Under the pieces are notes generated by a model, which had not been told where the DNA came from, did not search any database, and saw only the letters and a list, made by a program, of their open reading frames with translations. From Nitrosopumilus sp. (GTDB lineage Archaea > Thermoproteota > Nitrososphaeria > Nitrososphaerales > Nitrosopumilaceae): 64,000 nucleotides of DNA. Below, one piece after another: positions 3,568 to 61,214 of this stretch (position 1 is the first letter of the stretch; every line of letters starts with the position of its first letter). A program made the translations under genes and the position numbers. The stretch covers positions 1 through 64,000 of the forward strand of contig CBDBGZ010000008.1 in the NCBI GenBank assembly GCA_965205425.1. Reading direction: 5' to 3'.

Positions 3568-5256
3568 ATGAAATTACTAAGATTTCGAGTTCAACAATAC
3601 AAGAGAATTGAAGACTCTGATTGGATTGAGACTGGTGATGTCACTGCTATGGTTGGAAAAAATGAGGTAGGGAAATCTTCTATTTTTAGAGCCTTATCTA
3701 AATTGAATCCTTCAGATAATGAAGGATTTAACAAACAACAAGAATTACCTCATAAATCCTATGTTAAATTAAAAGATGAACTCATCTGTCCTATTACTGC
3801 TGAATTTGAAATTTTAGAAAATGAAGAGTTTATTACAAAAATTAAAAAACCTCATAAATTAATTGTAAAAAAAGATTATGATAATAATTTTTATTTTAAC
3901 TTAGACGGACAAGACGTTGCTGATGAAGAAAAATCTTCTAAGATAAAAGAATTTTTGCCTCGCTTCATTTACTTTGATAATTATGATAAGATTAAAGGTA
4001 GATTTGACATTCCTAATTTTATTTCTGCATATACTGCTGATCCTGATAATAGAACAATTAGAACAGAAAGATGTATGTTTGAATATGTTGGATTAGATCC
4101 TGCAAAACTTTTAGAGCTTAAAACAACTCCAGAGATGCCAGAAGCTGAAAAATACAAACGTGTAGAAGAGAGAAAAATCTTATGTGATTCTGCAGCTTCT
4201 AGTATGACTGACGAATTTAGAAATTGGTGGAAAGTTAGAGATTATAGATTTGATTATCGTATGGATGATGATAGTTTTGGAGTTTATGTGTCAGATCATA
4301 TTGATACTACTAGTGTTGAATTAGATCAAAGAAGTTCAGGATTACGTTATTTCTTTTCATTTTTCTTAATTTTTACTGTTGAATCCAAAAGAGGACACAC
4401 AAACTCTATTTTATTACTAGATGAGCCTGGTTTGCATTATCATGCAACGTTCCAATTGGATTTGATTGATTTCTTTAAAGAACTATCTAAAAAAAATCAA
4501 CTTCTCTATTCTACACATTCTCCATTTTTGGTAGATGATGATAATTTAGATGATGTTAAAATCGTTTATGAAGATAGGGATACTAAAAAAATTAAAGTTT
4601 CTGCTAATGGTGTATGGCCCAAAGATGCAGAGACTCTATTCCCTCTTAGATTGTCTTGGTGGAATAGTGTTTTTCAATCATACATGCAAGATAAAACACA
4701 CATGTTGGTAGAAGGTATTACAGATTCACGCATACTTAAAAAAATCAACAAAATTTTGATTAATAATGGGCATGATGGATTAGATCCTGAAATTGTTATA
4801 GCTCCTGGTGGGGGAAATAGGATGAGTGCTTTGATTTCTATTTTAAAAACTAGTGATGTCAGTCAATTCTACTTCCTTGATGGGGATAAACCTGGACTTA
4901 GTAGAGCTAAGCATTATACAAAAGATTTTGATTTGACAGGATTGACAACTAAAAATTTCAGCAAATTAGATCATTCTTCATTAGAAGATTTGATTCCAAA
5001 ATATGTTTATTTGAATGCAGTAAAATCTGCATATACTTTATCTGAAGTCACTTTAAATGAAACTGATTCGACTGATAAAATGATAACCCATCAAGTTGAT
5101 GAATATCTTAAAACTAAGGAATTAGGGAAAATAGATAAATTAAAAATCACTGAACAATTACTTCCTTTACTTGATGGTATTTCCAAGGAAATTTGTGATA
5201 CTTTTGTTCCTATATTTTTAAAAATTAATGAAATAAAAAAAACCTTGGATAAGTAG
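3568..5256 (+). CDS. OLD-family ATP-dependent nuclease (ABC ATPase + TOPRIM)
   Basis: Walker A GKNEVGKS, signature SSG, Walker B LLDEPGLHYH, H-loop STHSP, TOPRIM VEGITD and DGD. Confidence 0.85.
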   Translation: MKLLRFRVQQYKRIEDSDWIETGDVTAMVGKNEVGKSSIFRALSKLNPSDNEGFNKQQELPHKSYVKLKDELICPITAEFEILENEEFITKIKKPHKLIVKKDYDNNFYFNLDGQDVADEEKSSKIKEFLPRFIYFDNYDKIKGRFDIPNFISAYTADPDNRTIRTERCMFEYVGLDPAKLLELKTTPEMPEAEKYKRVEERKILCDSAASSMTDEFRNWWKVRDYRFDYRMDDDSFGVYVSDHIDTTSVELDQRSSGLRYFFSFFLIFTVESKRGHTNSILLLDEPGLHYHATFQLDLIDFFKELSKKNQLLYSTHSPFLVDDDNLDDVKIVYEDRDTKKIKVSANGVWPKDAETLFPLRLSWWNSVFQSYMQDKTHMLVEGITDSRILKKINKILINNGHDGLDPEIVIAPGGGNRMSALISILKTSDVSQFYFLDGDKPGLSRAKHYTKDFDLTGLTTKNFSKLDHSSLEDLIPKYVYLNAVKSAYTLSEVTLNETDSTDKMITHQVDEYLKTKELGKIDKLKITEQLLPLLDGISKEICDTFVPIFLKINEIKKTLDK

Positions 5257-11005: not shown

Positions 11006-11620
11006 TCACTTACCTTTTATGCGTATTGTTCTTGTATTGAAGATATTCATCTTTGATGTTCTTTTTGATTTTTCTGCTCTGGCACGAAGTCTTTCCCATT
11101 CTTTTCTAAACTCTTTGTCATCAAGAAACCCTCCATCTTTTCGTTTCTTTTCAATGCTTTGCATTTCAGATAGTAATGTGGCATCTGCATCATGCCATGT
11201 TCCTTGTATGTTAATTATTGTCTCATCTATCCCCCAGACTTTACCATATTCCAGACAGCATAAAATATCGTCAGTGAACATTTTCGCATATTGCAAGTAT
11301 TGGTTTGACCATCGGAGTATTGTTGTATGGTCTGTTATGTCTCCCCACTCAATAAACAGTCTAAGACATGTTTGCCTTGAACTCATCCCAAAGACAATAT
11401 TGTCAAATATACTCCCCATCTTTTTTAGTCGGGTTTTAGTGACTTGTGGACTTTTTATGATGTAACTTTTCTTGCAATTTTTGCACATGTATCGTATAGA
11501 ATTATTTTCCGAGATTGTAATTTTATTAAAATTATCACCATTCCCACAGTAACATGAATTAGGTTTTGAAGATGTAATGCCATCACTTTTTGGATAGTAG
11601 CGTGTGATGGTTTTGCTCAT
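11006..11620 (-). pseudogene. Truncated IS6-like (Zn ribbon-HTH-DDE) transposase
   Basis: CxC..CxxC, GMSSRQ, HTTILRW and VWGIDET (first catalytic Asp); the rest of the DDE domain is missing. Confidence 0.75.
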
Positions 11621-11725
11621 TTATGCGATCAGAAATTATTCCTTTAAGACCTTTTGGTCAGATGCCTAATGTGAGTAAGCCTGAACAATCGCTAATCTTA
11701 AAACCAGGATGTTTTTAGGGCTAAC

Positions 11726-12787
11726 ATGAGACCGACTGCAATTGAGTTATTTTCGGGTTGTGGAGGAATGGGATTAGGGCTGGAAAATGCAGGATTTGAC
11801 ATACTATATGCAAATGACATCAACAAGGATGCAACTAACACGTACAAAATGAATCTAAATGCCAAAATCGTTGAATGTGGGGATGTTACAAAAATCAATC
11901 CTAATGATGTACAAAAAAGAATTGGTAGAAAACATGTGGATCTTATAGTTGCAGGCACCCCTTGTCAGGGTTTTTCTACATCGGGAAAAAGAAATCCTAA
12001 TGATCCACGAAACAAACTCTTTAGACAATTACTAAAATTTGTCAATACATTTGAACCGAAATTTTTTGTCATGGAAAATGTCAGTGGTCTTCTAAGTATG
12101 GAAGAAGGAAATGTAATAAAGAAAATAAAAAAATATTTTTTGCAAATTGGGTATAATGTTCATCATAAGGTTTTATCTGCTGCAGAGTTTGGAATACCTC
12201 AAAATAGAAACCGAGTATTCATAATTGGTACAAAAAAAGAGATCGGATATGAAATGTTGTTTCCCCGTATTGGGAAAGCCAAACAAGTTACAGTAAAAGA
12301 TGCATTATCAGATTTATGTTTTCTTCAGGTTGGAGAAAAATCTGATTCTTATAAAATGAAGCCAAAATCACAATACCAAAAAACTATGAGAAAAAATTCA
12401 AAAAGACTTTGTAATCACGAAGCAGCAAACCATTCCCAAAAGGTCCAGAATAGGTTTGCAAGAATTCCTTCAGGGATAAATATTAGAAGCATTATTGCCA
12501 AAAAAGAGACTAATAAGAGAGACTGTTATAGACTTGATCCCAAAAAGCAAAGCAGAACAGTCACAACATTACCTGAAGATTTTATCCATTATCAAAAAAA
12601 CAGAATACCAACAGTACGTGAGATGGCCAGACTTCAGTCATTTCCAGACACCTTTGTATTTTCTGGGCCTAGGACTACAGGAGGACCAAGAAGAATACAT
12701 CAATGTCCTCAATACACACAAGTTGGAAATGCTGTTCCTCCTATGATGGCTAGACGTGTTTTTATGACCCTTGTAAAATTAGTGTGA
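11726..12787 (+). CDS. dcm: DNA (cytosine-5)-methyltransferase
   Basis: Motifs FSGCGG, GTPCQGFS, MENV, QNRNRVF, RLQSFP and GNAVPP. Confidence 0.95.
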   Translation: MRPTAIELFSGCGGMGLGLENAGFDILYANDINKDATNTYKMNLNAKIVECGDVTKINPNDVQKRIGRKHVDLIVAGTPCQGFSTSGKRNPNDPRNKLFRQLLKFVNTFEPKFFVMENVSGLLSMEEGNVIKKIKKYFLQIGYNVHHKVLSAAEFGIPQNRNRVFIIGTKKEIGYEMLFPRIGKAKQVTVKDALSDLCFLQVGEKSDSYKMKPKSQYQKTMRKNSKRLCNHEAANHSQKVQNRFARIPSGINIRSIIAKKETNKRDCYRLDPKKQSRTVTTLPEDFIHYQKNRIPTVREMARLQSFPDTFVFSGPRTTGGPRRIHQCPQYTQVGNAVPPMMARRVFMTLVKLV

Positions 12788-12789
12788 GG

Positions 12790-13605
12790 CTATTCCAAAC
12801 TTCTTTTTTCATCAATTTTTGCTTCAAATTCCTTCAATAATGACGAAAAACCATCTATTTTTCCAAATATTTTATGAATGTCATCTCGTGTAAATTCTTC
12901 ATCGTTTCCCATGTGAATCAACTTGTTATTCTCCCCATCTTTTACTTTACAATGTGCAAGAAGGTTTCTCTTCTGCTGAAGATCTCCGAGATTTCCAAGT
13001 CCTGAAAATTCAACATTTTCAGATTCCTTAATCTTTGAAAGAATTGTCTTTTTTGCTTCTAATGATATGTGCTTGTTTTCCAACACAAAATCTCTAAATC
13101 GATGATTTTTTGTTTGAGAAAAATATTTTTCAATAAAATTATTTATTTCTAGCTCAATCTCGATAATTCTAGATATTACTATTCCTCTCAAATAGTTCAT
13201 ATTTTCCCATTGAGAAATATTTTTTTCTACCAATGTCTGAAAACGATCTTGAATTTCTCTCCCTTCGACAATTTCAACAGAACCATACTGACAAATAACA
13301 TCGAGTTCTTTTCTGTCATATTTGTCAGCTGAATAAAACAATACATCAAGATGTTGGAACTCAGAACGTATCTTCCTGACTACGTCTAATCCGTCACCTG
13401 GATTTTCAATATTTTTGTCTGTCAGAACGATATCAATTTTTTTATTTTTTATTATAGATGTTATGTCATCGGTAGTTTCCAATTTAATCAGATTGGATTT
13501 ATACCCCTTTTCATCTAAATTCTCAAGTACTTCATCAATACTGCTTTTTACAGATGCAGGTTCATCATCAATCAACAAAAAATTAATGCTCATGTCATTA
13601 GTCAT
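12790..13605 (-). CDS. Response-regulator receiver (REC) domain fused to a putative HEPN domain
   Basis: LLIDDE acidic pair, VLTD phosphoacceptor, DGLDV and FYSA; helical C-terminus with RNLLAH (Rx4H). Confidence 0.75.
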   Translation of the reverse strand: MTNDMSINFLLIDDEPASVKSSIDEVLENLDEKGYKSNLIKLETTDDITSIIKNKKIDIVLTDKNIENPGDGLDVVRKIRSEFQHLDVLFYSADKYDRKELDVICQYGSVEIVEGREIQDRFQTLVEKNISQWENMNYLRGIVISRIIEIELEINNFIEKYFSQTKNHRFRDFVLENKHISLEAKKTILSKIKESENVEFSGLGNLGDLQQKRNLLAHCKVKDGENNKLIHMGNDEEFTRDDIHKIFGKIDGFSSLLKEFEAKIDEKRSLE

Positions 13606-15854
13606 TCAAACACCAACTCAAAACATGCTCCTTTCCCCAAATCCTCAAAATTATTCTCAACAAATCTTACACTACCACCCATTTTTTCTATAGATGTCTT
13701 AATATGTGTAAGACCAATTCCTGAACCATGTTTTGTGGTGGTAAATCCTCTCTTAAAGAGAAATTTACGGTCTTCTTTGGAAATTCCTCGTCCGTTATCG
13801 GCTACAAGTAAATGCAATTTTTTATTTTTTACTTTAAATTGAAATGACATTTTTGTTGAATTTGCTTTTCTAGAATTGCTGATGAAATTATCAAGAATCA
13901 TAGAAAGTTCCAGCGGGATGAATTTAGTCTTAAACTCAATATCCTCATTGATGAATTTGAATTGTATTCTGTTTGATACTCGAGATATGACTTGTTGTAA
14001 ATATTGTTTGATATATGATGGAATGTCTGCAGGAATCTTGCTAAGTTTCAGGTCAAAAGTAGCATTAGTAATTATTGATGCGAGTACACGTGCTTTTTGA
14101 TTCTCAATACTTATTTTTTCAATTCCTTCAAGAATTTTATCTGTAGATGAGTGATTTTTTACAAGGTCTATAAGCTCTTTTAGATATGTTGCTATATTTC
14201 CAGTTGTTATCGTAATGGAATGATTATAATCTTGAACCATCTGTGCATCATTGGAAAGTGTTTTCTTTAGAAACAGTAATTCTTTTTCACTTTGTTCTTT
14301 TTCTTTTGCAACAGATTTCATCTCTTGAGAATATGTCTTACTAATGTTAGTAATTCGTTTGATTTGAGATTCTACATATTTACGATCTTTTGTAGGAAGA
14401 AAATCCATCACAGGTTCCAAGTTTTTGACCATGTCGGGAAGGTTTTCTATCTGTCTTTCTTTGAAAATATTTAGTAAGTCTGGATTGAACCTGATTGATT
14501 TTTGTGGGTCTTTTACCTGCCCTGCAAGTTTACTAACAATTTCTAAACTATCATGCATTATCTCATCTTCTGTTTTCCTTCTTTCTTCAACAGGTTTATC
14601 CCAATCTATTCCCTCAACAACATATCTCTCAATTCTTCGAAGCACTTTACTGATGAAAAAATCTATCAATTGTTCATATCCTGATGTATAAACAACTCCT
14701 CCAGATCTACTTGAAACTTCCTTGAATTCGGGTTGTGGGCCTTGAAGTTCGATTCTTCCCATAATTTCCCTAGTAGAAAGATATCTGCTATGGCCCTGAG
14801 TTTTCCTTTTGTCTAGATTCAACCAATCATCTCCTTCATCACCATACGGTTGTATACGAAATCCATTTTTGTAAAGAAAGATAGAACCAAATCTTACTGG
14901 TACAAGACCCATCGTGCGTGTAAATTCGGCCTTAGCATCTCTATTGAGGAAGAATACTTTTATCGATATGTTGTCAAGTAGTTCAAATGTATTTTCTTCT
15001 TCAATGGTAAACACAAACCTTCCTTTGTCCTTTAGTGTGGTAATTATTTTTCCATCTTTAATTTCTGAACTTAGTTCAGTTGTTTTAATTTTTAATTTTT
15101 CAAAAACTATGTTTTCAATCTTGCCATTGATTTTAAGATAATTTGGTTTTCCTCTGTCATCATATGAAAATTCTTTTGCTATTACTTCGATTTCGAATTG
15201 ATTATTTTTTTCAAGCTGATTAGGGTTTACCAAACGTTGTAAATATCTACGTAATCTCAAAAGTTTGTCTTCATTCCAGACGGTGTTAAGAGGGTAAATC
15301 TCTAGAACCGTACCATGTTTGAAAGTTTTTAATTCAAAATTCTCTAAAGACATGTGTTTGGTAGTAATGTACTCCACTTTGATTTTGTGGAATTCTTTTT
15401 GCTGGTTATGTTCAAATTTTCTCCAATCAAGATCAATAAAATGAATGTCTGAATTATTTGCAGTTTTTGTATACATTCGAAGTTTGGCACCTAATCTATC
15501 TGCAGAAAATCTGCCGATTCCTTTTGCACCTGCAAAAATTCTTTTATTTTTACTCATTTTATCTATGAAATTTTCTTGAGAACTATCAAGTTTTTTTTCA
15601 GAATATCCTACAAATAACCACTTGTTTTTTAACTCTTCATAGGACATTCCAACTCCGTTATCTACAATGAGAATTTTTGATTTTGTATTGTCTTCCGATT
15701 TTATGTTCTGAAAAATAATTTTAACATTAGTTGCATCAGCATCATAAGAATTTTTTACCAATTCAAAGATGGCAGTATGATCTTCTGTGATTAGCTCTTT
15801 TCCTATAATATTTTTGAGCCCAGCACTAATTTTGAAATCTAATTTCTTTTCCAT
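13602..15854 (-). CDS. MORC/GHKL-type ATPase fused to a C-terminal histidine kinase
   Basis: N-terminal ELVKNSYDA, DNGVGM, GAKGIGRF and HGT; coiled coil; C-terminal H-box YNHSI, N-box DNFISNS, DNGRGI, FKRGFTT and GSGIGL. Confidence 0.85.
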   Translation of the reverse strand: MEKKLDFKISAGLKNIIGKELITEDHTAIFELVKNSYDADATNVKIIFQNIKSEDNTKSKILIVDNGVGMSYEELKNKWLFVGYSEKKLDSSQENFIDKMSKNKRIFAGAKGIGRFSADRLGAKLRMYTKTANNSDIHFIDLDWRKFEHNQQKEFHKIKVEYITTKHMSLENFELKTFKHGTVLEIYPLNTVWNEDKLLRLRRYLQRLVNPNQLEKNNQFEIEVIAKEFSYDDRGKPNYLKINGKIENIVFEKLKIKTTELSSEIKDGKIITTLKDKGRFVFTIEEENTFELLDNISIKVFFLNRDAKAEFTRTMGLVPVRFGSIFLYKNGFRIQPYGDEGDDWLNLDKRKTQGHSRYLSTREIMGRIELQGPQPEFKEVSSRSGGVVYTSGYEQLIDFFISKVLRRIERYVVEGIDWDKPVEERRKTEDEIMHDSLEIVSKLAGQVKDPQKSIRFNPDLLNIFKERQIENLPDMVKNLEPVMDFLPTKDRKYVESQIKRITNISKTYSQEMKSVAKEKEQSEKELLFLKKTLSNDAQMVQDYNHSITITTGNIATYLKELIDLVKNHSSTDKILEGIEKISIENQKARVLASIITNATFDLKLSKIPADIPSYIKQYLQQVISRVSNRIQFKFINEDIEFKTKFIPLELSMILDNFISNSRKANSTKMSFQFKVKNKKLHLLVADNGRGISKEDRKFLFKRGFTTTKHGSGIGLTHIKTSIEKMGGSVRFVENNFEDLGKGACFELVFE

Positions 15855-16001
15855 CTATGACGTTATAAACACCTAAGATAAAAAACTACTATACGTGAAA
15901 ATCATAGTTGTCCAATCACCATATTAAAAAAATAAGACCAAGCCTGAAATCCTTTACTGTGACTCCTTTGAGATATGTGTTCTCAGATCAAATTATTCTA
16001 A

Positions 16002-16147
16002 AGATCATCAAAATGCACCAGCAGGGTTTTTTGAAACAATTTAGTGTAAATCATTCAAATAGAAATACCAAAGTCAGATAAAATCGAATCTTGAGAAGAT
16101 CCATAATTCATGATTATGTGTGTAGATCATCAAAATGCACCAGAACC
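16002..16147 (-). repeat. Two half-copies of the GGTTCTGGTGCATTTTG.TGATCT end motif
   Basis: 16002-16021 and 16124-16147; the latter extends homology (AATCATGAA) to 37930-37970. Confidence 0.8.
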
Positions 16148-16290: not shown

Positions 16291-18486
16291 TTAATTCAGA
16301 TCAAGAGGTTTCCAGTCTGAAAAATCCTTTTCATCATACTCATATTCCTCATTGTCATTGTACAACCATTCACCATTCTCAAATACTGCAATACCACCAA
16401 AAACCTTCTTGGACTTGTTGTTTCTGATGTATCTAGATAATGCCTCTGCCTTTGGTTTGGCAATCTTGGCTGTAAATCCTGCTTTTGTGTCGTATAGACC
16501 TATTCTGCCATCATTCATGCGAATAACAAAGTCAACATAAAATGCGTGAGGTTCTCCAGTCTCAGGATCATCATACTTTATGGCAAAGTATTTCTTGTCA
16601 TTGACCTCATTTTTAAACCACCATTTCACGTTATTTTCTTCTTCAAGAAAATCCATGAATCGGATCTCATTTTGTATGTCTGTTTTGATATAAGCTGGTG
16701 ACATTATGCATTTTTTGTAGTCTTTTTTGTCATAGACTTTGGTATATTCTGTATTTTTTGGTATATTCCATTTTTGAATATCTTCTGTTTCACGATTGAT
16801 TTTTTCAACAACATCTCTGGTAAACTGAGATTTTGATTCAGATATTGCCCTGATAAAATGATCCTTATTTTTTGTAGACAATGTTATGTTTGCCATGTCC
16901 ATAAGATCAGTTATTTTGGTGTTTTTCTCAAAAAATTGATGAATACATCTTTTTATGATTCCGTGAGAGTGTTCTTTTGCGAAAGGTTCTGACATTTCTC
17001 TTGCAAATGAATCGAATCTATTTTGTAAATTCATTGCATCAGATTGTCTAATCAGTAAAGTTCCTTGAAGACTTTGGTTTTTATCCAATTCTATAATCTC
17101 TGCATCAGATATTAGATTCTGTTCTAATTGTGGAACATTCAATGAAATTTTATCTATGATATGTTGTCTGTTTGCAACATTAGAAAAGATCTTGCGAAAT
17201 TCTGCATTAAGACGAGTTTTTTCATGTTTTCGTTTTATGTATATGGATTTTAGATCAATATCCTCATGAAGATCTTCTCTTCGTATGGACTCATAAATTG
17301 TAATATAGTCTCTTGTGACATCTTCGGCAATCTGTACTTCTTCAATGTTTGTGTATACATAGGCATGATTTAATTCATCATTATCATAATGTCTTATTTC
17401 TGGCATTCTAATTATTCTGCCTATTGTCTGTATAGAAAATTCAAATTTTTTCCATTCTCTAAATAACACAAGAATTGATGAACGTGGACAATCCCATCCT
17501 ACAGTAATTGCCTGTTTAAAGATTAAAACTTCAACCTCATTTTCATTTTTTTCAATATTTTCAAGATTTACCTTGTTGTCTTTGTCTGAAAGATAAATTG
17601 CAAGTTTACCATTGTTTGTATTTATTCCAAACCTTGAGTTCAAGAGTTCGATTACTTGATCTTTTCTATCCGACATTCCTTTGCGTGAATCAGGTAATTG
17701 TATTAATACCAGAGGATTCACACTAGAATTTTCATTCTCATAACTTTTCTTTAATTCCTGTCTTTTTTCAAGAGCTGTCTTTATGATTAATTCATCTGTT
17801 GTGCTACCTTGAGTATTTCCAAGATGATAATTTAATCTTACAGAATTTTTCACCATCTCTTCATCTTTGACTTCTTGAAGATCAATACTTTGAACATAAT
17901 CAGTATCAGAAATTTTAGGCGTAGCTGAAACCTCTATCGTTACCTTTGGGTTTATTTTTTGGATTATTTCTCTTGATTTTTCAGAGCTTGCAGTATGATG
18001 ACTTTCATCAATGATTAGGATTATTTCTCTACCTTCATCTTTTGTATTTTCTATGACTTTTGATAGATTAAACTCATTTTCATTTTCTCGTATGTAGATA
18101 TTTTTTTCTTGGTTTATACTCTGCCAGTTGAAAAACAAGATTTCTTTATCCTGTATCTGTTTGTCTTGTAAATCATTGAAATTTGCACATCCTACAGTTT
18201 GTAAATCCTCGTAATATTTTTCTAATTTTTCCTTACTTTGGTCATGTAGTTTATGAACAGTAATCCAAATAAATGCAATTTCTTTTCCATCCTTTCTATT
18301 ATCTACAAGTCTCTTGATCAGTTCAGCCATCATGATTGTCTTACCTGATCCAGTCGGAGACTTGAAAATGCAAATTTTCTTTGATTCTAAATTAAGAAAT
18401 TCATCTATTTTTTGTTTTAACTCACTTACGTGTTTTTCTTGATAATTTCTTAGTCTGAACATACGCAAATATCCTCTTGTATACAT
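16291..18486 (-). CDS. res: Type III restriction enzyme Res subunit
   Basis: SPTGSGKT, IIDESH, SATP, GWDCPR and QTIGRIIR; C-terminal nuclease FYVDF..YDTK; probable start at MFRLRNYQ. Confidence 0.9.
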   Translation of the reverse strand: MYTRGYLRMFRLRNYQEKHVSELKQKIDEFLNLESKKICIFKSPTGSGKTIMMAELIKRLVDNRKDGKEIAFIWITVHKLHDQSKEKLEKYYEDLQTVGCANFNDLQDKQIQDKEILFFNWQSINQEKNIYIRENENEFNLSKVIENTKDEGREIILIIDESHHTASSEKSREIIQKINPKVTIEVSATPKISDTDYVQSIDLQEVKDEEMVKNSVRLNYHLGNTQGSTTDELIIKTALEKRQELKKSYENENSSVNPLVLIQLPDSRKGMSDRKDQVIELLNSRFGINTNNGKLAIYLSDKDNKVNLENIEKNENEVEVLIFKQAITVGWDCPRSSILVLFREWKKFEFSIQTIGRIIRMPEIRHYDNDELNHAYVYTNIEEVQIAEDVTRDYITIYESIRREDLHEDIDLKSIYIKRKHEKTRLNAEFRKIFSNVANRQHIIDKISLNVPQLEQNLISDAEIIELDKNQSLQGTLLIRQSDAMNLQNRFDSFAREMSEPFAKEHSHGIIKRCIHQFFEKNTKITDLMDMANITLSTKNKDHFIRAISESKSQFTRDVVEKINRETEDIQKWNIPKNTEYTKVYDKKDYKKCIMSPAYIKTDIQNEIRFMDFLEEENNVKWWFKNEVNDKKYFAIKYDDPETGEPHAFYVDFVIRMNDGRIGLYDTKAGFTAKIAKPKAEALSRYIRNNKSKKVFGGIAVFENGEWLYNDNEEYEYDEKDFSDWKPLDLN

Positions 18487-20099
18487 TTAGTATTGCGGAA
18501 GGTATTGGTTTTAAAGTTACTAATGATCGGATATTTTCAAACTCATCTGTATTTACTTCATCAGTCAATGAAAATACATACGTATTGATTTTTTTATCCA
18601 ATTTTAGAACCTCTTTTTTGAATGATTCTATTCCATCATTAATAGATAATTCCAAGATATTTATTCTCATGATTCTTGAATATTTTGAATTGTTTTCCTT
18701 TTTTGACTAGTTCAAAACAATCTTCTTTTAAGCATAACATTTCTGTTGATTGTTCCACCATCACCCTCTTATTCTGATCTGTTGGTTCTGAATCTACAAA
18801 CAAAGTTTTGAAATATTTGAGATTACCACCTAATCCGTCTATTTTTTTATCTTTGACACTCTTGTAACCCTTGATCACTTTTTTTAATCTTGGATAACAA
18901 ACATCAGTACAAATATTATTTTCATTATTTGTACAGAGAATAAATTTTCTGTTTCCTTCATCCTCTTTATTCAATTCCATTACTGCATGTCCTGTAGTTC
19001 CCGAACCCGCAAAGAAATCTAAAATCAAGGACTCTTTGTTTGAGGCAATTTGTAAAATCCTTTTAATTAGTCTAACTGGTTTTGGTGTAGAAAATACATC
19101 ATCAGGCAAAATATTTTGTAGTTCTTGTTTTGCTTCTTGATTATCTCCAGCTTCATCTCTTAACCAAATTGTTTTTGGTATTACTCCATCTCTAACATCT
19201 GATAAAAATCGCTTAAATCTAGGCACATTATTTCCAGATTTTCCAAAATATATCCTATTATCTTTTATCAATTCATCAAGTTTTCTTTTTGAAAATCTCC
19301 AACTTGTACCTTTAGGAGGCATAATTTTTCTACCACTTGGAGTTATTATTTCATATATGTCTTTTTGATTTGGAGTTTTCACTTGTAATGGACCTGATGC
19401 CCAAACACCTCGAGAATCATTATCTTGATTTTTATAAATTGATAATTGAGATTCCATTCGGGTTAAAAGATTAATTTTTAATTTTTTTGAATCTCGTGCA
19501 TATACAAAAATAAAATCATGATTGTCTGAAAAATATTTTGCATCATTAGAAGACGTATGTTTTTTCTGCCATATTAAAGTGGCAATAAAATTATTTTCAT
19601 CAAAAATTTCATTACATAATAATTTTAATTGAGCTTGTTCATTATCATCAATAGAAATAAAAATAATTCCTTTTGAAGAGAGTAATTTCTTTGCCAGTTC
19701 TAATCTCTTTTTCATAAATGATAGCCATTTACTGTGTTTGTATGTATCTTCTCTATCTACAATCTTATCATTATACGTAAATTCATTTCCAAGATTATAA
19801 GGAGGATCAATATAGATAACATCTATTTTTTCTTTATGACTATAATTCAAAACTGAAAGTGCATGATAATTATCTCCTTCAATCAAAATATTATTGGGTT
19901 TTGATTTATCTTCAATTCCATTTTTTGTAACATCTTTTAGAACTGGAAGTTTTTTCTTTACTTCTTCTTCAAAAACTTCTTTAACTCTTTCCTCATCCCA
20001 AATTAGACCATATTTTTTTCTCTTGTTCAGTTTTTGAATTTCTTTAACAAGTTCTGGTTTACTCCATTTTTTATAATCGATTTTTCCGTTAACTGCCAT
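18422..20099 (-). CDS. mod: Type III R-M Mod subunit (N6-adenine MTase); C-terminus frameshifted near 18640
   Basis: IEGDNY, IDPPY, PKP and DFFAGSGTTG; the last ~70 codons (NTYVFSL..PIPSAILNVYKRIF) continue in ORF 18422..18670. Confidence 0.9.
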
Positions 20100-25261: not shown

Positions 25262-27328
25262 GTGACATATTATAGAATTTCAAATGGCAAGAAAAGATTC
25301 ATAGAAAATGGATTTCCAACTGCCAAGTCTCATTTGATTGCTATGAGGGAAGGGAATTCTAAACGTCCAATATATCAAATCCATAAGTGGTGGGCGAGAA
25401 GGCTTGGAAGTGTATTTCGCACTTTGTTAATTTCTTCATTTTCTCCTGCACATGAGTCTCAAAAGGATATTTGGTCAAAATATTATAATGGATTTTCACT
25501 TCAAAACAAGGTAATTTATGATCCGATGATGGGAGGAGGTACAACTTTAGTTGAGGCACTAAGGCTTGGTTGCAATGTGATAGGTTCTGACATCAATCCT
25601 GTTGCATGGTTTGTTACAAAAAAAGAAATTGAAACATTTGATGAATTAAAAGCTGATAAATATTTTAAAAAAATTGAAAATAATACAGGTGTAAAAGTCA
25701 AAGAATTTTACAAAACTAAATGCAATAATCATCATACATGTGATACACTTTATGATATTTGGGCAAGGCAGGTAACATGTATTGCATGCTCAAAACAATC
25801 CGATTTATTCACCAGTAGGATAATTAGAGATGATGGAAAAACAAAAACAGTTCACTGTCCTACATGTGATGAAATATTCCAAACCCGTCAAAAATCAAAC
25901 CAAATCAAATGTAGACAATGCAAGCACCATTTTAATTTAATGTCTAGCAACTCCAAACGAGGATATTTTACTTGTACATGTAAAATAAAAACAAAGATTA
26001 CTGAAATAGTAAAACAACAAAAGAAACTTTTGGACTCTAGAATCATCTGCGTAGAGTTTGAATGTAGTAAATGTGGAAGGGGCTTTAAAAAACCAAGTAA
26101 AACTGATATCAAAAAATTTAAAACAGTACGAAACATGTTTGCTAAAAACAAACGACAATTACCATACCCTAAAGAAGAGGTACATCCAGGCCACATTGGA
26201 GACACTAGACCAAAAAATCATGGGTTTGATTTTTATCATCAGATGTTTACTTCGAGACAACTTTATTCTTTAGCATTAACATTAAAAGAAATTAAAAAAA
26301 TTCCCGACCAAAATATAAGGGAATTCATTTTACTTGCATTCTCCAGCTGTCTGGAAACCAATAATACCCTTTGTAAATACGAAACTAATTGGGGCAAAAT
26401 ATCTGCACTCTTTGCATTCCCATCATACCATGTTCCAGAAAGATATTGTGAAAATAACCTATGGGGAAACGGACGTGGCTCTTTTGTGCGCTCGTATTTG
26501 AAACTAAAAAGAGGCAAAAAATATGCAGATCAATCATATGAAATTGTTCAAAATAACAAGAACATGGTTCACAAGAAAAAGAAATTCACCGGACACAGTA
26601 TTCTTACTGACATTGGAAAAGGCAAATCAAGTGCAACAAATGGACGTGTGAGTCTTCAATGTAGAGATTCGAAGAACATGCCTATGATAAAATCAAAAAC
26701 GGTTGATGTAGTATTGACTGATCCACCATATTTTGATATGATGAGCTATTCAAGACTGGCTGATTTCTTTTTTGTATGGCTTCGACTTGGTCTACAAGAT
26801 CAATATCCTTGGTTCAAACGCATTTCTTCCTCATCAAAAAATGAGATTGTCTTAAATGATTACTTTGATGAGGATACTGAAAACTTTGTCTTACAAATAT
26901 CACAAGTATTCAAAGAATGCAAAAGGGTTCTCAAAGACGATGGAATAATGGTATTTACATTTCACCATAGCAAAGAATGGGCATGGTCAAATCTCAAAGA
27001 TGCATTAAATAAGTCCGGTTTCACTGCTACCGCAAGTCAGGTAATTCGTTCTGAAGGGAAGACCGGTTTCAAAAAGAGCGGGAATACGGGTTATGATGTA
27101 TGTGTAATAGCAAGAAAAACAAAATGCATAGAGAAAAAAAATACTCAAAGTAACAAACTAGTCAAAAACTATGACAAGTCAGTAAGATCAATGAGGCAGC
27201 ACAACTCTGGAATTAACAAAGCAGACATGTTTACTGCTGCAATGGGACAGTATATGTTAAGCAGTAAAAATACTACTGAGGAATTTTTAGAACTTCATCC
27301 AAAATTTATGAAAACAACCACATCATAA
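25262..27328 (+). CDS. DUF1156/COG1743 adenine DNA methyltransferase with Zn ribbons
   Basis: IHKWWARR, DPMMGGG and TDPPY motifs plus multiple CxxC; start uncertain. Confidence 0.85.
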   Translation: MTYYRISNGKKRFIENGFPTAKSHLIAMREGNSKRPIYQIHKWWARRLGSVFRTLLISSFSPAHESQKDIWSKYYNGFSLQNKVIYDPMMGGGTTLVEALRLGCNVIGSDINPVAWFVTKKEIETFDELKADKYFKKIENNTGVKVKEFYKTKCNNHHTCDTLYDIWARQVTCIACSKQSDLFTSRIIRDDGKTKTVHCPTCDEIFQTRQKSNQIKCRQCKHHFNLMSSNSKRGYFTCTCKIKTKITEIVKQQKKLLDSRIICVEFECSKCGRGFKKPSKTDIKKFKTVRNMFAKNKRQLPYPKEEVHPGHIGDTRPKNHGFDFYHQMFTSRQLYSLALTLKEIKKIPDQNIREFILLAFSSCLETNNTLCKYETNWGKISALFAFPSYHVPERYCENNLWGNGRGSFVRSYLKLKRGKKYADQSYEIVQNNKNMVHKKKKFTGHSILTDIGKGKSSATNGRVSLQCRDSKNMPMIKSKTVDVVLTDPPYFDMMSYSRLADFFFVWLRLGLQDQYPWFKRISSSSKNEIVLNDYFDEDTENFVLQISQVFKECKRVLKDDGIMVFTFHHSKEWAWSNLKDALNKSGFTATASQVIRSEGKTGFKKSGNTGYDVCVIARKTKCIEKKNTQSNKLVKNYDKSVRSMRQHNSGINKADMFTAAMGQYMLSSKNTTEEFLELHPKFMKTTTS

Positions 27329-28938: not shown

Positions 28939-29388
28939 ATGTGTATACTATGTATGGTTGGAATAAGAAATGGAAACAAGTTCGTTTTAGACACTTGTAC
29001 AGTAATCAATATTTTGGAGAATAGGGCAATAGCTGATCTAATTAAATGCCATATTGATACTGAAAATTCTAGTGTCTATCTGAATAGTGTGTCACTTGAT
29101 GAGGCTTTAAGAAAAGGATATGACAAGAAGAAAATTGTTTCAAAAATCTCAGAATATTTGGACACTTTAGTTATTGTCAAAGAGGTTTCTATTGAAAATC
29201 ATGTTACTGCTCGAAGACTAGAAGATGATTGTTCTTTAATTCATCGTGGTGATTCTGCAATTGCAGCATTTTCAATGGATCATAAATCAACTTTGATTAC
29301 ATATGACAAAGAATTTCTCAAAGGGTGTCATAGTGTAGGAATTCCAACTTTTAATCCAAACATGATTTTTGGAGGAATGACTGCATGA
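28939..29388 (+). CDS. PIN-domain (VapC-like) nuclease
   Basis: FVLDTCTVIN, DE, HRGDSAI and ITYDK acidic motifs. Confidence 0.8.
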   Translation: MCILCMVGIRNGNKFVLDTCTVINILENRAIADLIKCHIDTENSSVYLNSVSLDEALRKGYDKKKIVSKISEYLDTLVIVKEVSIENHVTARRLEDDCSLIHRGDSAIAAFSMDHKSTLITYDKEFLKGCHSVGIPTFNPNMIFGGMTA

Positions 29389-31374: not shown

Positions 31375-32763
31375 ATGGTCATCAAAAAAAACACTGATTC
31401 AAAAAAATCAGAATATACAATCAATAAAAATAATGCAAAAATGATTTTAGATTTTATTAACAAAAACAAAAAATGTAAAATTAATAATAGTGCGGGAATT
31501 GTAATTGAAAACGGAAAGAAGAAATCTAAACCTTCTTTCATGATACCTAGAAGCCTTTTAAAATTAAATACTTTCAATCATAGATTCACTACTTCGATGA
31601 ATACTTTAAGAGATGAAAGAATCAAGTCTGGAAAATCTCCTGAATTTGATATGAATAAAAAAGCAGATGTTGAAATAATAAGAAATATGCTTAGGGGAAT
31701 TGATCCTTCAAACAAAGATAGACACAATCAATACAATATATTAAAAAATGAAATAGAAAAGGCATCATTTGAGTTTGGTACTAACGGAATAGAAAAACCC
31801 ACTATTATCACTGCTGATGGAATATACATAAACGGAAATAGACGTGATACTGTTTTAGAAGATCTTAAACAGATACAAATTAAAAAGAAAAAAGGAGGGT
31901 TACCTGAAAAATATAATTCAATTGGAGTAATGATTTGTGATGCAGATATTACAAATTCAGATATACGTAGAATGGAATTGAAAGAACAGGTCAGTAAGGA
32001 TCTTCGAGATGAATATGATACAATGAATTCAGCAATACTTGTTAAAGAAGAATATGAAAATGAACTGGCCATTAAAGGACCTGGTCATGAAGAAGAAGTA
32101 AAGAAAATACTTGCAGGTACAATGGAAGGTAGAAACGTAAAGAAAATTAATGAGCTTTTAGATTTTGCAGATTTTGTAGATCAGGTCTTAATACAATTAA
32201 AACTTGAAAGACAATATCATAAAATAAACACAAATTCAGATGAAAATGATGCAGTACCTGTAACAACAATTATCAAACAATTTTCAAGTAAATGGGCTAA
32301 TGCAAGTCCTGCCGACAAAGCTAACATAATATTTGAATGTGCAGGAACTGTTCAAGGAGTTTTAAGTAAATCTAAGATTACAGATCCAACACACTATAAT
32401 TTTACATCCAGAAAATATTGGGAGTCAAGAACGCTCCGAAATAAATCACCAAGTGCTAAAAAAATTGTAGATGACTATGATTGGTCCAGTCACGATTTTA
32501 CTTCAATTGAAAGTTGTAAAAGATTTGGAAACATACTTCAAAAGGCTGAAGAAAGAGCAAAAGATGAAGAGTGGATAAATTCACCCAGTAAACTTCTTGT
32601 ATCCGTTAATGATAAACTTGTAATTATTTCTGATGCATTAACAGGGCCTCAAAATAAAAGAATGAAAATAAAGTTAAAACAATCTAACGTTGACAGACAT
32701 CTGAGAGAAATTAAAAAATCTTTGGCTAGTATTGAATCTAAATTAAAGAAAATAAAGACGTAG
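31375..32763 (+). CDS. ParB/Srx-like domain protein
   Basis: PTIITADGIYINGNRR motif followed by a helical region. Confidence 0.7.
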   Translation: MVIKKNTDSKKSEYTINKNNAKMILDFINKNKKCKINNSAGIVIENGKKKSKPSFMIPRSLLKLNTFNHRFTTSMNTLRDERIKSGKSPEFDMNKKADVEIIRNMLRGIDPSNKDRHNQYNILKNEIEKASFEFGTNGIEKPTIITADGIYINGNRRDTVLEDLKQIQIKKKKGGLPEKYNSIGVMICDADITNSDIRRMELKEQVSKDLRDEYDTMNSAILVKEEYENELAIKGPGHEEEVKKILAGTMEGRNVKKINELLDFADFVDQVLIQLKLERQYHKINTNSDENDAVPVTTIIKQFSSKWANASPADKANIIFECAGTVQGVLSKSKITDPTHYNFTSRKYWESRTLRNKSPSAKKIVDDYDWSSHDFTSIESCKRFGNILQKAEERAKDEEWINSPSKLLVSVNDKLVIISDALTGPQNKRMKIKLKQSNVDRHLREIKKSLASIESKLKKIKT

Positions 32764-32772
32764 AGATAATTC

Positions 32773-34770
32773 ATGATAAATATTTATTTTTCTAAAACTG
32801 ATTCGAATACTTATCAGATTAAAACTGATGAAGAACTTCATACATTTTTCATACCTACATTGAATGCTTATAATTTTAAAAACACTAGTGAAAATTTATG
32901 GGAAAATATTTCCGATGATGATTATATTATTTCTCAAATGTATAACTTGTTTACGTGTCCTGGTTATAGCATTATCCCAAATCCCAAAATTAAAGAAATT
33001 AAAGAAAAATTTGAACAACAGCAAAAAGATTATCAAAAATTTACAGAACTCGGCATTAAATTAAAGGAAAATAAAAATCCAGAATTACCTAAAATAGAAT
33101 TAAAAAAAGGAATTACTCTGGAATCTTTTCAAAAAATGTCCATTAATCATATGATTAACATACCTAATTCTGCAAATTTCTCCATTCCAGGTTCTGGAAA
33201 AACATTAATGACATTATCTGCATTTAATATTTTAAAAAATCAATCTAAAATAGATCAAATGTGGGTAATTGGTCCATTGGCTTCATTTAAAGCATGGGAG
33301 ATAGATTACGAAAATCTATTTGGTAAATCAATATCGTCTCATACCCTTCGTTATCATGCGAGGACCCCTGCAGAACGTAAAAAATTAAGAAATAAGATCA
33401 AAGACAAAGATATCATCATTACATCATATGGTACTGCAACTAATGATATTGATTTAATTAAATCCTTATGGGAATCCAATGACAAAAAAATATTATTGGT
33501 ACTTGATGAATCACATCACATAAAAAATATTAGAGAAACTACTGTAGATGGAAATGATACTCTTTCTAGTAAAATAATTCAATTAGGGAAATCTGCTGAA
33601 AGAAGATGTATTTTAACTGGAACTCCAATTCCCAGAGATTTAACCGATCTCTGGTCACAAATTACATTTTTGTGGCCACATATTGAACCATTTAAAGATC
33701 GTAGAGAATTTGGACGGAGATTAAAAGATTTTGAAGGATTTGTTGAAGATGAAATTAAAAAAGATATTGAGTTTATGTGGAGCAGAGTTACAAATAAGCA
33801 AATGGAACCTAAAATGCCAGAAAGATTCTATGAAACGATTGAAATTAAAATGGATTCAACTCAACAACAAATCTATTCTATAATTAGAGAGCAAATGATA
33901 CATGAAATGGATCAAGGTAGAAATCAAGATGCAATTAGAAAGTTAAAAAAAGCACGAATTATAAGATTATTACAAACCGTAACAAATCCTAGATTGATAT
34001 CTGAAAACGATCCTGATTTTCGTTATGATAAATTAACCGTAACAAAAAAAGGAGATAAGGACATTCTACATCTTCTTTCAGAATATGATGATACTAAAAC
34101 TACTCCAAAAATCATTGCTGCGGCAAAACATGCACGAGAATTAGCTACAGGGATTGGTTTACGTGCATTAAATAAGAAACCAAAAAATGTATTAATTTTT
34201 ACTATGTTTAAGGGTACGGCGAAAGATTTATCTGAAGAATTAAATGATCAAAATCCACTAATAGTTACCGGTGATCTTGATGCAAAGATTAGAGAAGAAA
34301 CATATGAGAAATTCAAAGATTGGAATTTTAAAAATGGATCTGGCAAAATTTTAATTGCAACTGTTGGTTCAATAGCAGAATCAGTATCATTGCATAAAAA
34401 TAAAGAAGGAAAATCTGTATGTCAAACTGTGATTTATTTAGAGAGAAATTATAATGCCGGACAATATATGCAGTCCCTTTTTCGTGTTTACCGTATAGGT
34501 TCAAACAAAGATTTACCTGTTCGTTATTATTTTTATCAAAGTACATTTGATGATGGAACTGATTCTATTGATGGTAGAATTCATGATATCTTAGATAATA
34601 GAACTACAACCATGTTTGAAATGTTAAATGATGAATTTAACATACAACCAATGTCATTAGGAATAGATCAAGGCGAAAAAAGAGATGAGGATGATAAAGA
34701 TGAAGACATGGAAGATATTGAAGATGAAATTTATCAAAAAGAAATTTCAAATGGGGATTGGCTTAATTAA
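32773..34770 (+). CDS. SNF2-family helicase/ATPase
   Basis: PGSGKT, LDESHHIKN, LTGTP and QSLFRVYRIG. Confidence 0.9.
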   Translation: MINIYFSKTDSNTYQIKTDEELHTFFIPTLNAYNFKNTSENLWENISDDDYIISQMYNLFTCPGYSIIPNPKIKEIKEKFEQQQKDYQKFTELGIKLKENKNPELPKIELKKGITLESFQKMSINHMINIPNSANFSIPGSGKTLMTLSAFNILKNQSKIDQMWVIGPLASFKAWEIDYENLFGKSISSHTLRYHARTPAERKKLRNKIKDKDIIITSYGTATNDIDLIKSLWESNDKKILLVLDESHHIKNIRETTVDGNDTLSSKIIQLGKSAERRCILTGTPIPRDLTDLWSQITFLWPHIEPFKDRREFGRRLKDFEGFVEDEIKKDIEFMWSRVTNKQMEPKMPERFYETIEIKMDSTQQQIYSIIREQMIHEMDQGRNQDAIRKLKKARIIRLLQTVTNPRLISENDPDFRYDKLTVTKKGDKDILHLLSEYDDTKTTPKIIAAAKHARELATGIGLRALNKKPKNVLIFTMFKGTAKDLSEELNDQNPLIVTGDLDAKIREETYEKFKDWNFKNGSGKILIATVGSIAESVSLHKNKEGKSVCQTVIYLERNYNAGQYMQSLFRVYRIGSNKDLPVRYYFYQSTFDDGTDSIDGRIHDILDNRTTTMFEMLNDEFNIQPMSLGIDQGEKRDEDDKDEDMEDIEDEIYQKEISNGDWLN

Positions 34771-34779
34771 ATCGACAGC

Positions 34780-60649: not shown

Positions 60650-60653
60650 GAAA

Positions 60654-61214
60654 ATGACACAAACAAAACCTATAATTGCAATAGTTAATGTGGTAGCTTC
60701 TGCTACAATTGAACAAAAGTTAGATCTTGTAGATATTACTAAAAAATTCCCTGCCGTTGAATATCATCCAGAACAATTCCCTGGTGCTGTATTTAGGCTC
60801 AAAAACCCCAAGACTGCCACACTTCTTTTTGGTTCAGGTAAAATGGTATGTACTGGTGCGAAATCTCAAGAATTGGCAGAAACTGCTGTATTTGAAGTTG
60901 TGAAAATATTACGAAAAGGTAAAATCAAAATTAAAAATGATCCTATAGTTTCAATCCAAAATATTGTATCCTCAATCAATCTTGGAGGTAAAGTAAACCT
61001 GGAGCAAGCTGCTAGAACCCTTCCAAGAAGTATGTATGAGCCAGAACAATTCCCAGGGTTAATTCACAGGATGCTTGACCCTAAAACTGTAATTCTAATT
61101 TTTGCTTCAGGAAAATTGGTATGTGTTGGTGCTAAACTTGAAAAAGATGTTCATCGTTCAGTTAACCAAATTCATGCATTGCTTGAAGAAAAAGGATTAA
61201 TGGTTTACGATTAG
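60654..61214 (+). CDS. tbp: TATA-box binding protein
   Basis: NVVAS..PEQFPG..GKMVCTG repeated twice. Confidence 0.97.
   Translation: MTQTKPIIAIVNVVASATIEQKLDLVDITKKFPAVEYHPEQFPGAVFRLKNPKTATLLFGSGKMVCTGAKSQELAETAVFEVVKILRKGKIKIKNDPIVSIQNIVSSINLGGKVNLEQAARTLPRSMYEPEQFPGLIHRMLDPKTVILIFASGKLVCVGAKLEKDVHRSVNQIHALLEEKGLMVYD

Follow-up and report, generated by a model that had tools for sequence, protein, structure and literature searches.

A cytosine methylase, a paraMORC-type kinase and a receiver with a HEPN-like output domain: a candidate methylation-linked defence cassette in Nitrosopumilus

Ambrosia (AbrR-AbrA-AbrB-AbrC-AbrD) from Pseudomonas aeruginosa was validated in 2025 as an anti-phage system; for its receiver a role in transcription has been proposed, and a D60A substitution there abolishes defence, while the methyltransferase is required, yet methylation gave phages no protection, and no toxicity to the host was seen (bioRxiv 10.1101/2025.09.30.679545). 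A layout of Dcm, paraMORC kinase and receiver had been predicted in 2021 in the form of HEF_HK (PF19191) and Response_reg_2 (PF19192) pairs, which were proposed to regulate restriction-modification (R-M) and for which no known output domain was reported (PMC8011034). A further point of comparison is provided by the paraMORC-Ymh HEPN fusions and the PrrC/RloC-like RNases that back up R-M, which likewise couple, within an R-M setting, a paraMORC GHKL ATPase to a HEPN RNase (PMC3710099, PMC2292703).

Here, we describe a three-gene cassette from Nitrosopumilus sp., located in a 64,000-nucleotide stretch of contig CBDBGZ010000008.1 (the whole of which is referred to as the window), that encodes a C5 cytosine DNA methyltransferase (Dcm), a kinase and a receiver (REC) fused to a HEPN-like domain (Table 1). 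Compared by architecture, it shares with Ambrosia the presence in one cassette of a DNA methylase, a HATPase sensor kinase and a receiver with a phosphoacceptor Asp, and by this analogy it looks like an RNase-armed relative of that system; the two differ in that the methylase is N6 in Ambrosia (N6-adenine, AbrA) and C5 here, in that the receiver is a REC-wHTH protein there and a HEPN-like fusion here, and in that neither the XRE regulator AbrR nor the separate HNH protein AbrD has a counterpart in the window's cassette. The HEF_HK pairs are alike in combining a soluble kinase of HATPase_c_3, DHp and HATPase_c domains with an adjacent receiver, a C5 methylase and often Vsr (PMC8011034), whereas the proteins of the window match neither PF19191 nor PF19192, the predicted phospho-His is not followed here by Glu or Asp, and the Response_reg_2 query of that paper was 600 aa long against the 271 aa of this receiver. 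In the paraMORC-Ymh fusions the HEPN domain is joined directly to the ATPase, while here a His-Asp relay stands between the two, and the HEPN domain of the window resembles the RiboL-PSP and MAE_28990 families instead. From classical Type II R-M the cassette differs in that no cognate restriction endonuclease stands beside the methylase, or anywhere else in the window. Since PMC8011034 set out the layout in 2021 and the Ambrosia cassette has been validated, the present cassette belongs as a variant to a class already known, and its architecture is not new. None of the PADLOC and NCBIfam models fits the receiver or the full-length kinase. The apparent novelty lies in a receiver that has the putative toxic effector as its own output domain, a fusion for which a literature search returned no example.

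Table 1. Features of the cassette and its surroundings, in positions of the window
Feature	Position	Strand	Remarks
dcm (C5 cytosine DNA methyltransferase)	11726-12787	+	353 aa; converges with the kinase and receiver genes; Pfam DNA_methylase
REC-HEPN receiver gene	12790-13605	-	271 aa; receiver residues 6-134, helical HEPN-like domain residues 136-270
HEPN catalytic-type motif R213-N-L-L-A-H218 (RNLLAH)	12952-12969	-	alignment A2, 144 homologues
Phosphoacceptor Asp63 codon of receiver	13417-13419	-	retained in 139/144 homologues (alignment A2)
Kinase gene	13602-15854	-	750 aa; soluble; paraMORC-type GHKL + S5-like module + helical linker + His kinase
Predicted phospho-His545 codon of kinase	14220-14222	-	21/21 cassette kinases
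5.1-kb block with all three genes	11040-16147		three occurrences in assembly
Truncated IS6-like transposase, left edge of block	11006-11620	-	intact 536-aa DDE_Tnp_IS240 gene in C9 copy

The kinase and receiver genes overlap by 4 bp (13602-13605) and the stop codons of receiver and dcm lie 2 bp apart, both as given in a preliminary description of the locus, which did not mention that the latter two genes are on opposite strands. Besides the copy in the window, the 5.1-kb block is found at C8:203516-209642, where it is interrupted by a 1-kb IS some 40 bp ahead of the start of the kinase, and at C9:6531-11639; since two of the three copies sit at contig ends, we rejected three true genomic copies, and the real number is probably two. 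Contigs of sequencing run X6 extend over 11984-16031 but take in little flanking DNA, a gap in coverage that proves nothing. A Type III res-mod pair (16291-20099) neighbours the cassette and was rejected as a component because it lies outside the duplicated block and was not seen beside relatives; it is a separate system, and the cassette is, as previously stated, devoid of a visible cognate endonuclease. A scan for sigma-70 promoters gave chance-level matches, that consensus being unsuited to an archaeal host.

The preliminary description had recognised in the kinase two GHKL domains, one of them MORC-like and the other part of a complete histidine kinase. The open reading frame and Pfam agree, with HATPase_c_3 at residues 26-181 (E 1.5e-26), HATPase_c at residues 648-749 (E 6.6e-20), the H, N, G1, F and G2 boxes all found and both GHKL domains intact. 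His545, in the DHp domain, is invariant and is directly followed by an acidic residue in none of the 21 cassette kinases, all of which retain the N-terminal ATP-binding residues E31, N35, D65, G67, G109, G112 and G114. The N-terminal module is upheld as a GHKL ATPase, though not as MORC proper: its S5 region, GSIFLYKNGFRI, has a Gly-to-Arg spacing of ten residues, against eight in the MORC motif, and does not match GhXhhpXXRhl, the S5-domain signature of MORC proper (PMC2292703), so that 'paraMORC-type' is the better label. The N-terminus is similar to BbrUII/HgiDII restriction enzymes (E 3.8e-24), and matches to PADLOC REase_II and NCBIfam BbrUII are confined to this shared GHKL region; Pfam gave no PF19191 match for the window kinase or the relatives scanned. 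In phages the kinase matches N-terminal fragments only, and sister kinases are paired with different receivers and have different genes downstream.

In the receiver, Pfam Response_reg covers residues 10-101 and the key residues are D13, D14, the phosphoacceptor D63, S92 and R116, whereas PF19192 is not matched by the window receiver and is matched weakly by 2 of the 144 family members (best E 0.0022). Members of the HEPN RNase superfamily share an acidic residue in their first helix, and position 151, on helix 136-162, is E or D in all 144 homologues. R213 and H218 are likewise present in every homologue and are the family's best-conserved positions, with the polar residue after R213 being N in 140 and D in 4. 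Of the 872 stop-to-stop frames of 200-350 aa in the host genome, 412 contain the loose Rx4-6H pattern by chance, but only 8 the strict form R[NDH]xx[AG]H. Weak matches to HEPN families of Pfam were obtained within the family (RiboL-PSP in 10 members, best E 6e-7; MAE_28990 in 6; ApeA in 4; Swt1 in 3), none of them from the window receiver itself. As whole-protein fold searches were swamped by receiver domains, the C-terminal domain was folded alone; its top match is sacsin HEPN (Z 8.6, rmsd 3.0, 106 residues), although for helical bundles the tool sets its mark at a Z of about 13. Seven of the 14 best matches are HEPN proteins, judging by their titles or by the table of PMC3710099, and MtlR is also among the matches. 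Foldseek with this domain returned nothing at E <= 0.001, a profile search against PDB sequences nothing meaningful (best E 0.022) and NCBIfam weak matches only (Csm6 in 2 of 31), while PADLOC run on the 144 receivers gave no real match, the weak ones being to PDC-M60B and PD-T4-2_B (8 each) and to CARF-HEPN models. The predicted REC-HEPN homodimer scored 0.02 against a mark of 0.42, which is not evidence either way. The fold result agrees with the motif conservation and the family Pfam matches, and on these sequence and model grounds the C-terminal domain, as first proposed from its RNLLAH motif, is HEPN-like and probably an RNA-cutting toxin domain.

The expected recurrence of the triad was confirmed by a gene-neighbourhood survey, in which kinase and Dcm adjoin the receiver in 14 of 17 genomes found via the receiver alone; this count leaves out five receiver-less HEPN-only matches (G036, G780, G684, G1195, G1598) and the two centre genomes (G532, G533), which had first come up with the kinase. 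The remaining three genomes carry a receiver with neither kinase nor Dcm, in which Asp63 is replaced and RNxxAH kept, and in two related genomes these orphans occupy the same chromosomal site. Asp63 is present in all 22 kinase-linked loci, and its absence from all three kinase-less orphans lends indirect, sequence-level support to a phosphorelay coupling kinase to receiver. Locus L009 has a receiver, half a kinase and no Dcm within 6 kb. Across 21 loci, kinase and receiver distances correlate with a Mantel rho of 0.52 that is inflated by kin, and Dcm distances track both weakly (rho 0.20-0.21). Bacteria as well as archaea carry the triad, most copies found being bacterial, contrary to the archaeal framing under which it was introduced. 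Its occurrence is patchy (in the phylum to which a Chitinophaga belongs, 10 of 401 genomes; in the Chromobacterium phylum, 3 of 401), with no full-length match in 150 relatives and no full-length REC-HEPN in a plasmid collection. Beside the 21 relatives, a Vsr protein or a HhH-GPD glycosylase adjoins nine (four by Pfam, five by visible similarity), HNH_2 is found at only two among the neighbours scanned, and a PNKP-type HAD phosphatase, which would suit RNA-end repair, follows the receiver in two. The three genes are a real, widely transferred cassette.

Pfam DNA_methylase covers residues 5-349 of the Dcm (E 1.9e-75), which carries the TLP[ED]D.IHY / TTGG signature common to cassette Dcms. In the Dcm tree it groups with L029 and a Nitrosarchaeum Dcm (100/100), apart from the usual cassette Dcms, a position that marks the window copy as coming from a swapped-in sub-branch that has replaced the Dcm in this lineage. 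Palindrome depletion across 18 cassettes (81 kb, 162 patterns, judged against codon shuffles alone) was modest (TCGA 0.79, AGWCT 0.63, GGRYCC 0.50) and gave no clear site as the Dcm target.

We regard the chances as even that this is a methylation-linked defence cassette in which phosphorylation by the kinase switches on an abortive-infection RNase. Dcm, whose motifs are present, would mark a specific cytosine site, and the paraMORC GHKL-S5 clamp of the kinase would act as an intracellular sensor, most likely of the DNA state at or around that mark or of a loss of Dcm activity during infection. The kinase would then autophosphorylate on His545 and pass the phosphate to Asp63, pairing two HEPN domains whose RNxxAH motifs would form an active site and, following established HEPN biology, cut RNA, so that dormancy or death aborts the infection; HEPN would here stand in for the HNH, metallo-hydrolase or other effectors that are separate genes in sister cassettes. 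The survival of cells with Asp-less, kinase-less receivers fits a harmless unphosphorylated state. We counted for a defence cassette the IS-bounded duplication, the Type III R-M neighbours and the patchy spread, and against a defence RNase the modest fold score, the lack of a HEPN Pfam match in the window protein and of an acidic residue after His545, the MtlR fold match, given that HEPN proteins of the MtlR type are regulatory and retain the motif in 60% of cases (table of PMC3710099), the weak co-tracking and replacement of Dcm, and the Dcm-less L009. As Ambrosia is non-toxic to its host and its methylation left phages unprotected, abortive death and self-marking should not be taken for granted, and by analogy with that second result a simple self/non-self reading of methylation may be wrong.

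The switch may also be inverted, in the manner of guard or addiction systems, with the kinase maintaining phosphate on the receiver, and thereby silencing the RNase, for as long as the Dcm mark persists, so that upon loss of the cassette, methylation or kinase activity the phosphate decays and the RNase is freed. We consider this unlikely, although it suits a methylase without a restriction enzyme and recalls both the PrrC-like HEPN RNases, which PMC3710099 proposes to be held off by R-M partners, and the HEPN-MNT toxins, which are reported to be silenced by modification; under this reading the three genomes with a kinase-less, Asp-less receiver and intact RNxxAH should suffer toxicity unless that receiver is otherwise locked off, and Ambrosia defence needs its Asp (bioRxiv 10.1101/2025.09.30.679545). 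Less probable again is a regulatory, non-lethal output, in which the HEPN domain would bind or cut a narrow RNA target, or bind a protein as MtlR does, and so tune expression of dcm or neighbouring R-M genes. R-M regulation is what was proposed for the HEF_HK / Response_reg_2 class (PMC8011034), the Ambrosia receiver is proposed to be transcriptional and the host is not killed (bioRxiv 10.1101/2025.09.30.679545), MtlR is among the fold matches, and orphan receivers persist at one site in two related genomes; yet no residues are better conserved than the catalytic R and H, and most cassettes, with HNH_2 so rare among the neighbours scanned, show no other effector to regulate.

Behind both we place a sensor that reads the products of Dcm (T:G mismatches from 5mC deamination, or hemimethylated or newly methylated invading DNA) and serves as a DNA-damage or 'mark the invader' checkpoint instead of detecting unmethylated DNA. 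The Vsr or HhH-GPD neighbours speak for such a role, as do the MutL-type GHKL proteins that work with Vsr (PMC2292703), an Ambrosia methyltransferase that is required yet not protective (bioRxiv 10.1101/2025.09.30.679545) and one kinase with an N-terminal domain that also occurs in the HNH_2 proteins (E 1e-9); Vsr often accompanies Dcm genes anyway (PMC8011034), however, and neither is found in the window's cassette. Very improbable, finally, is a Dcm that is a chance neighbour of a unit made up of kinase and receiver alone: it is convergent, has 34-39% identity to the usual cassette Dcms, and has its nearest named relative beside a helicase operon in Nitrosarchaeum, but L029 shares the convergent layout (66-77% identity), a Dcm of the same signature is adjacent in those 14 of 17 independently found genomes, and all three genes lie within the duplicated block.

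Response regulators mostly act via DNA-binding or second-messenger domains. Should the receiver be a toxin RNase, phosphorelay would join the known ways of gating HEPN effectors. We suggest, tentatively and with somewhat more doubt than belief, that it is a response regulator with a lethal RNase output, turned on when a paraMORC kinase that clamps DNA and senses the methylation state of its cytosines transfers phosphate directly from His to Asp; if so, it would be a two-component kill switch without a transcriptional step, common to bacteria and archaea. With its three genes, the cassette represents in minimal form the paraMORC-kinase class, of which Ambrosia is the only validated member, and as its predicted effector offers a direct readout in RNA cleavage, it makes paraMORC-kinase sensing testable, with the natural kinase-less, Asp-less orphan receivers as built-in controls.

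Re-deriving the three reading frames of the cassette returned the arrangement of the preliminary description, with a 750-aa kinase overlapping a 271-aa receiver by 4 bp and a C5 cytosine DNA methyltransferase gene (Dcm) ending 2 bp away; Dcm lies on the opposite strand, convergent on the pair. Pfam recognizes HATPase_c_3 (residues 26-181) and HATPase_c (648-749) in the kinase, Response_reg in the receiver and DNA_methylase in Dcm. Neither PADLOC nor NCBIfam holds a model for the receiver or the full-length kinase, the restriction-enzyme matches of the latter being confined to its N-terminal GHKL domain, and the triad matched no named system in either collection.

Coordinates of the cassette and associated features (without prefix, positions in the window)
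Feature	Position	Strand	Remark
Kinase	13602-15854	-	4-bp overlap with receiver
Receiver	12790-13605	-	4-bp overlap with kinase
Dcm	11726-12787	+	convergent on kinase-receiver pair, stops 2 bp apart
Duplicated block	11040-16147		three occurrences in assembly
Type III restriction-modification pair (res, mod)	16291-20099		distinct from cassette
AAA_15 ABC ATPase	3568-5256		defence-like
N6/N4 methylase	25262-27328		defence-like
PIN protein	28939-29388		defence-like
SNF2 helicase, then NOV_C nuclease	31375-35751		defence-like
TFB- and TBP-like ORFs	59717-61214		identified by eye
Secreted-looking paralogue family	starts at 1627-2994, 5710, 22470, 45588
Orphan REC-HEPN genes	L037:6559-7644, L039:6968-7861, L041:6137-7282		three high-GC members of host's family
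PNKP-type HAD phosphatase	L067:1435-1899, L071:7838-8278		directly 3' of REC-HEPN gene, two unrelated genomes
Kinase with extra N-terminal domain	L061:3847-6669
Closest named relative of window Dcm, with Vsr-like gene	L030:4994-12525		5' of helicase and MrfA zinc-domain gene
Plasmid cassette, Stenotrophomonas	L076:1404-8462
Provirus-like gene run	L077 (G000:C9:12889-24386)		immediately past C9 copy
Region with N-terminally short MmeI-type R-M gene and inserted IS	L078 (G000:C8:199461-204719)		at C8 copy, which the R-M gene adjoins

The receiver had been thought to carry a helical, HEPN-like output domain, a reading that gains support here. A profile-library search gave 300 clusters at E <= 0.001 (the best 150 listed) and a word search 15 proteins; from 163 aligned sequences, 144 near-full-length, non-redundant receivers were retained as alignment A2. 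Here D63 is conserved in 139, S/T92 in 137 and a basic residue (Lys/Arg) following strand 5 in 127, while R140-G141, E/D151, R213 and H218 are each present in all 144. The strict motif R[NDH]xx[AG]H occurs in only 8/872 comparable frames of the host genome, and A2 members match four HEPN Pfam families, weakly. The AlphaFold model has pLDDT 94, and that of the C-terminal domain folded alone 93; the top structural matches of this domain are HEPN domains, namely sacsin (Z 8.6) and AF0298 (7.7), followed by HEPN toxins (7.3 and 6.9), YutE, HI0074 and AbiA, scores that are modest for a helical domain; a Foldseek search with the domain gave no significant match. Motif, profile and fold agree, and we regard the domain as very likely HEPN, and its predicted RNase activity as likely.

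Across 21 cassette kinases there is no variation in the N-terminal GHKL residues checked, in His545 or, towards the C-terminus, in N660 and the G1 and G2 residues; N656 and F700 are retained in 19/21. The alleged MORC-like ATPase keeps its GHKL residues; however, the conserved middle block xFLYKNGFRIxPYG..GDDWL, which we read from the alignment as a putative S5-like domain, fails the MORC signature in the accessible part of PMC2292703, and the module is therefore of paraMORC type. One kinase (L061) carries an additional N-terminal domain, possibly a DNA-reading module, whose homologues form the N-terminus of HNH_2 proteins adjoining other cassettes (E 1e-9).

With A2 as query, whole-genome searches found no full-length match in 150 relatives, 5 matches in 400 genomes of the host's own phylum, 10 in 401 of the phylum of Chitinophaga, 3 in 401 of that of Chromobacterium and 1 in 301 of that of Methanoregula. 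Setting aside the host, two centre genomes and five HEPN-only matches left 17 genomes, 13 of which carry the full triad and one a triad cut by a contig end. In the other three (G472, G493, G185), high-GC members of the host's family, kinase and Dcm are both missing from the neighbourhood, and the orphan receivers no longer have Asp63 or the acidic pair but keep RNxxAH; they are possibly domesticated RNases. Two of these genes occupy the same site, between ferredoxin-like and metallo-hydrolase-like genes. Searching with the kinase brought six more triads (L001-L006, of which two are the centre genomes) among 24 loci, and L009, where the receiver is accompanied by half a kinase but no Dcm; a metagenome locus (L029) has the convergent layout of the window plus Vsr. 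Across 22 triad loci, the window included, Dcm lies upstream in 17, convergent in 4 and downstream co-directional in 1. Among the neighbours scanned, Vsr or HhH-GPD adjoins 9/21 relatives, and HNH_2 and a PNKP-type HAD phosphatase 2/21 each.

The layout had been put forward as one lacking an experimentally characterised archaeal counterpart; the output domain is its apparently new part, the class being known. PMC8011034, in the text available, places kinases of this architecture next to receivers and C5 methylases and reports no known output domain, and the Ambrosia preprint (bioRxiv 10.1101/2025.09.30.679545) describes a validated MTase-kinase-receiver-HNH cassette. Our cassette would operate like both Ambrosia and the HEF_HK class, yet falls outside each as defined; HEF_HK kinases have an acidic residue after the His, whereas the 21 cassette kinases have Q, T, S, H or A and never an acidic one. 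PMC3710099 reports paraMORC-Ymh HEPN fusions, its accessible passages containing no REC-HEPN fusion, and Fig. 6F of PMC13092281 names HATPase and REC among predicted systems. No REC-HEPN effector was described in the literature searched, mostly non-subscription papers and including the accessible text of PMC13092281, PMC12839542, PMC10542128, PMC11090510 and the Tiamat and ParA preprints (a search by that name gave 0); supplements could list the fusion (PMC3710099 Additional file 1; PMC8011034 Tables S2-S3; Ambrosia Fig. S3, Table S2).

In the model we prefer, the paraMORC module would sense a DNA or methylation cue, phosphate would pass from His545 to Asp63, and the HEPN dimer would be turned into an active RNase, aborting infection; as a whole, we judge its chances evenly balanced. 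The domains, conserved residues, linkage and joint loss of kinase and Asp are observed, whereas DNA sensing, phosphotransfer, switch direction, RNase activity and a defence role are inferred. Against it, Ambrosia, in the text available, did not kill its host and methylation was no escape route, MtlR-type HEPNs are regulators, and the cassette kinases have an atypical H-box. An inverted switch, in which the phosphorylated receiver is RNase-off and phosphate loss frees the RNase, seems unlikely to us; the orphans that keep the motif having lost Asp63 tell against it. A non-lethal, regulatory HEPN output, akin to MtlR, is slightly less probable.

A sensor that detects Dcm products is a little more doubtful again; no Dcm target site could be inferred from palindrome depletion in 18 cassettes. 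That the window Dcm is a chance neighbour might be argued from its 34-39% identity to usual triad Dcms, the window kinase sharing 49-52% with its nearest bacterial and methanogen relatives; with the TLP[ED]D..HY / TTGG signature common to all triad Dcms, and triads recurring elsewhere, this is very improbable. In the tree, the window Dcm clusters with the Dcms of L029 and Nitrosarchaeum (its closest named relative; support 100/100). It appears to have been swapped in from within the same subfamily, which would argue for coupling via the DNA mark rather than tight protein contact. The gene arrangement at L030 is one that we take to be DISARM-like.

The TFB- and TBP-like ORFs mark the host as an archaeon, and its 33% GC, 2.2 Mb and closest named Dcm point to a probable nitrosopumilid. 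Its genome is very rich in IS, several elements having 15-30 near-identical copies each. Besides the window copy, the block recurs where contig C8 ends (with the left flank in common) and where C9 begins (with the right flank in common). Between them, the three occurrences combine two left with two right flanks, for which two inverted copies plus assembly redundancy or an inversion are the simplest account. Run X1 may be the source sample; there, depth was 1434 for the cassette contig and 691-853 for flanking contigs, depth not being copy number. A 1-kb DDE_Tnp_1 IS with an 8-bp target duplication lies ~40 bp upstream of the C8 kinase start and may alter its promoter. The provirus-like run beyond the C9 copy encodes a phage-type Dam, a packaging-type ATPase (PHROG terminase, E 2e-16), a collagen-like fibre and several uncharacterised ORFs.

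More distant kinases have as partners other receivers, N6 methylases, DUF4007/PAPS-reductase genes, a metallo-beta-lactamase-fold protein and uncharacterised proteins, so that both the effector and the mark can be exchanged within the class. The distant paraMORC kinases of L012, L013 and L015-L021 have receivers of 620-715 aa and lie 3' of DUF4007, ATPase and PAPS-reductase genes, presumably resembling phosphorothioation operons, and their relay may couple also to a non-methyl DNA mark. The Stenotrophomonas plasmid locus has a SIR2-like gene, a same-signature Dcm, kinase and short receiver; it also encodes a 226-aa protein, unannotated and with no Pfam match, whose HG and SCG motifs we take to recall a caspase-like protease. 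The cassette itself is real, conserved and mobile, and its notable feature is a response regulator whose direct output is a probable RNase.
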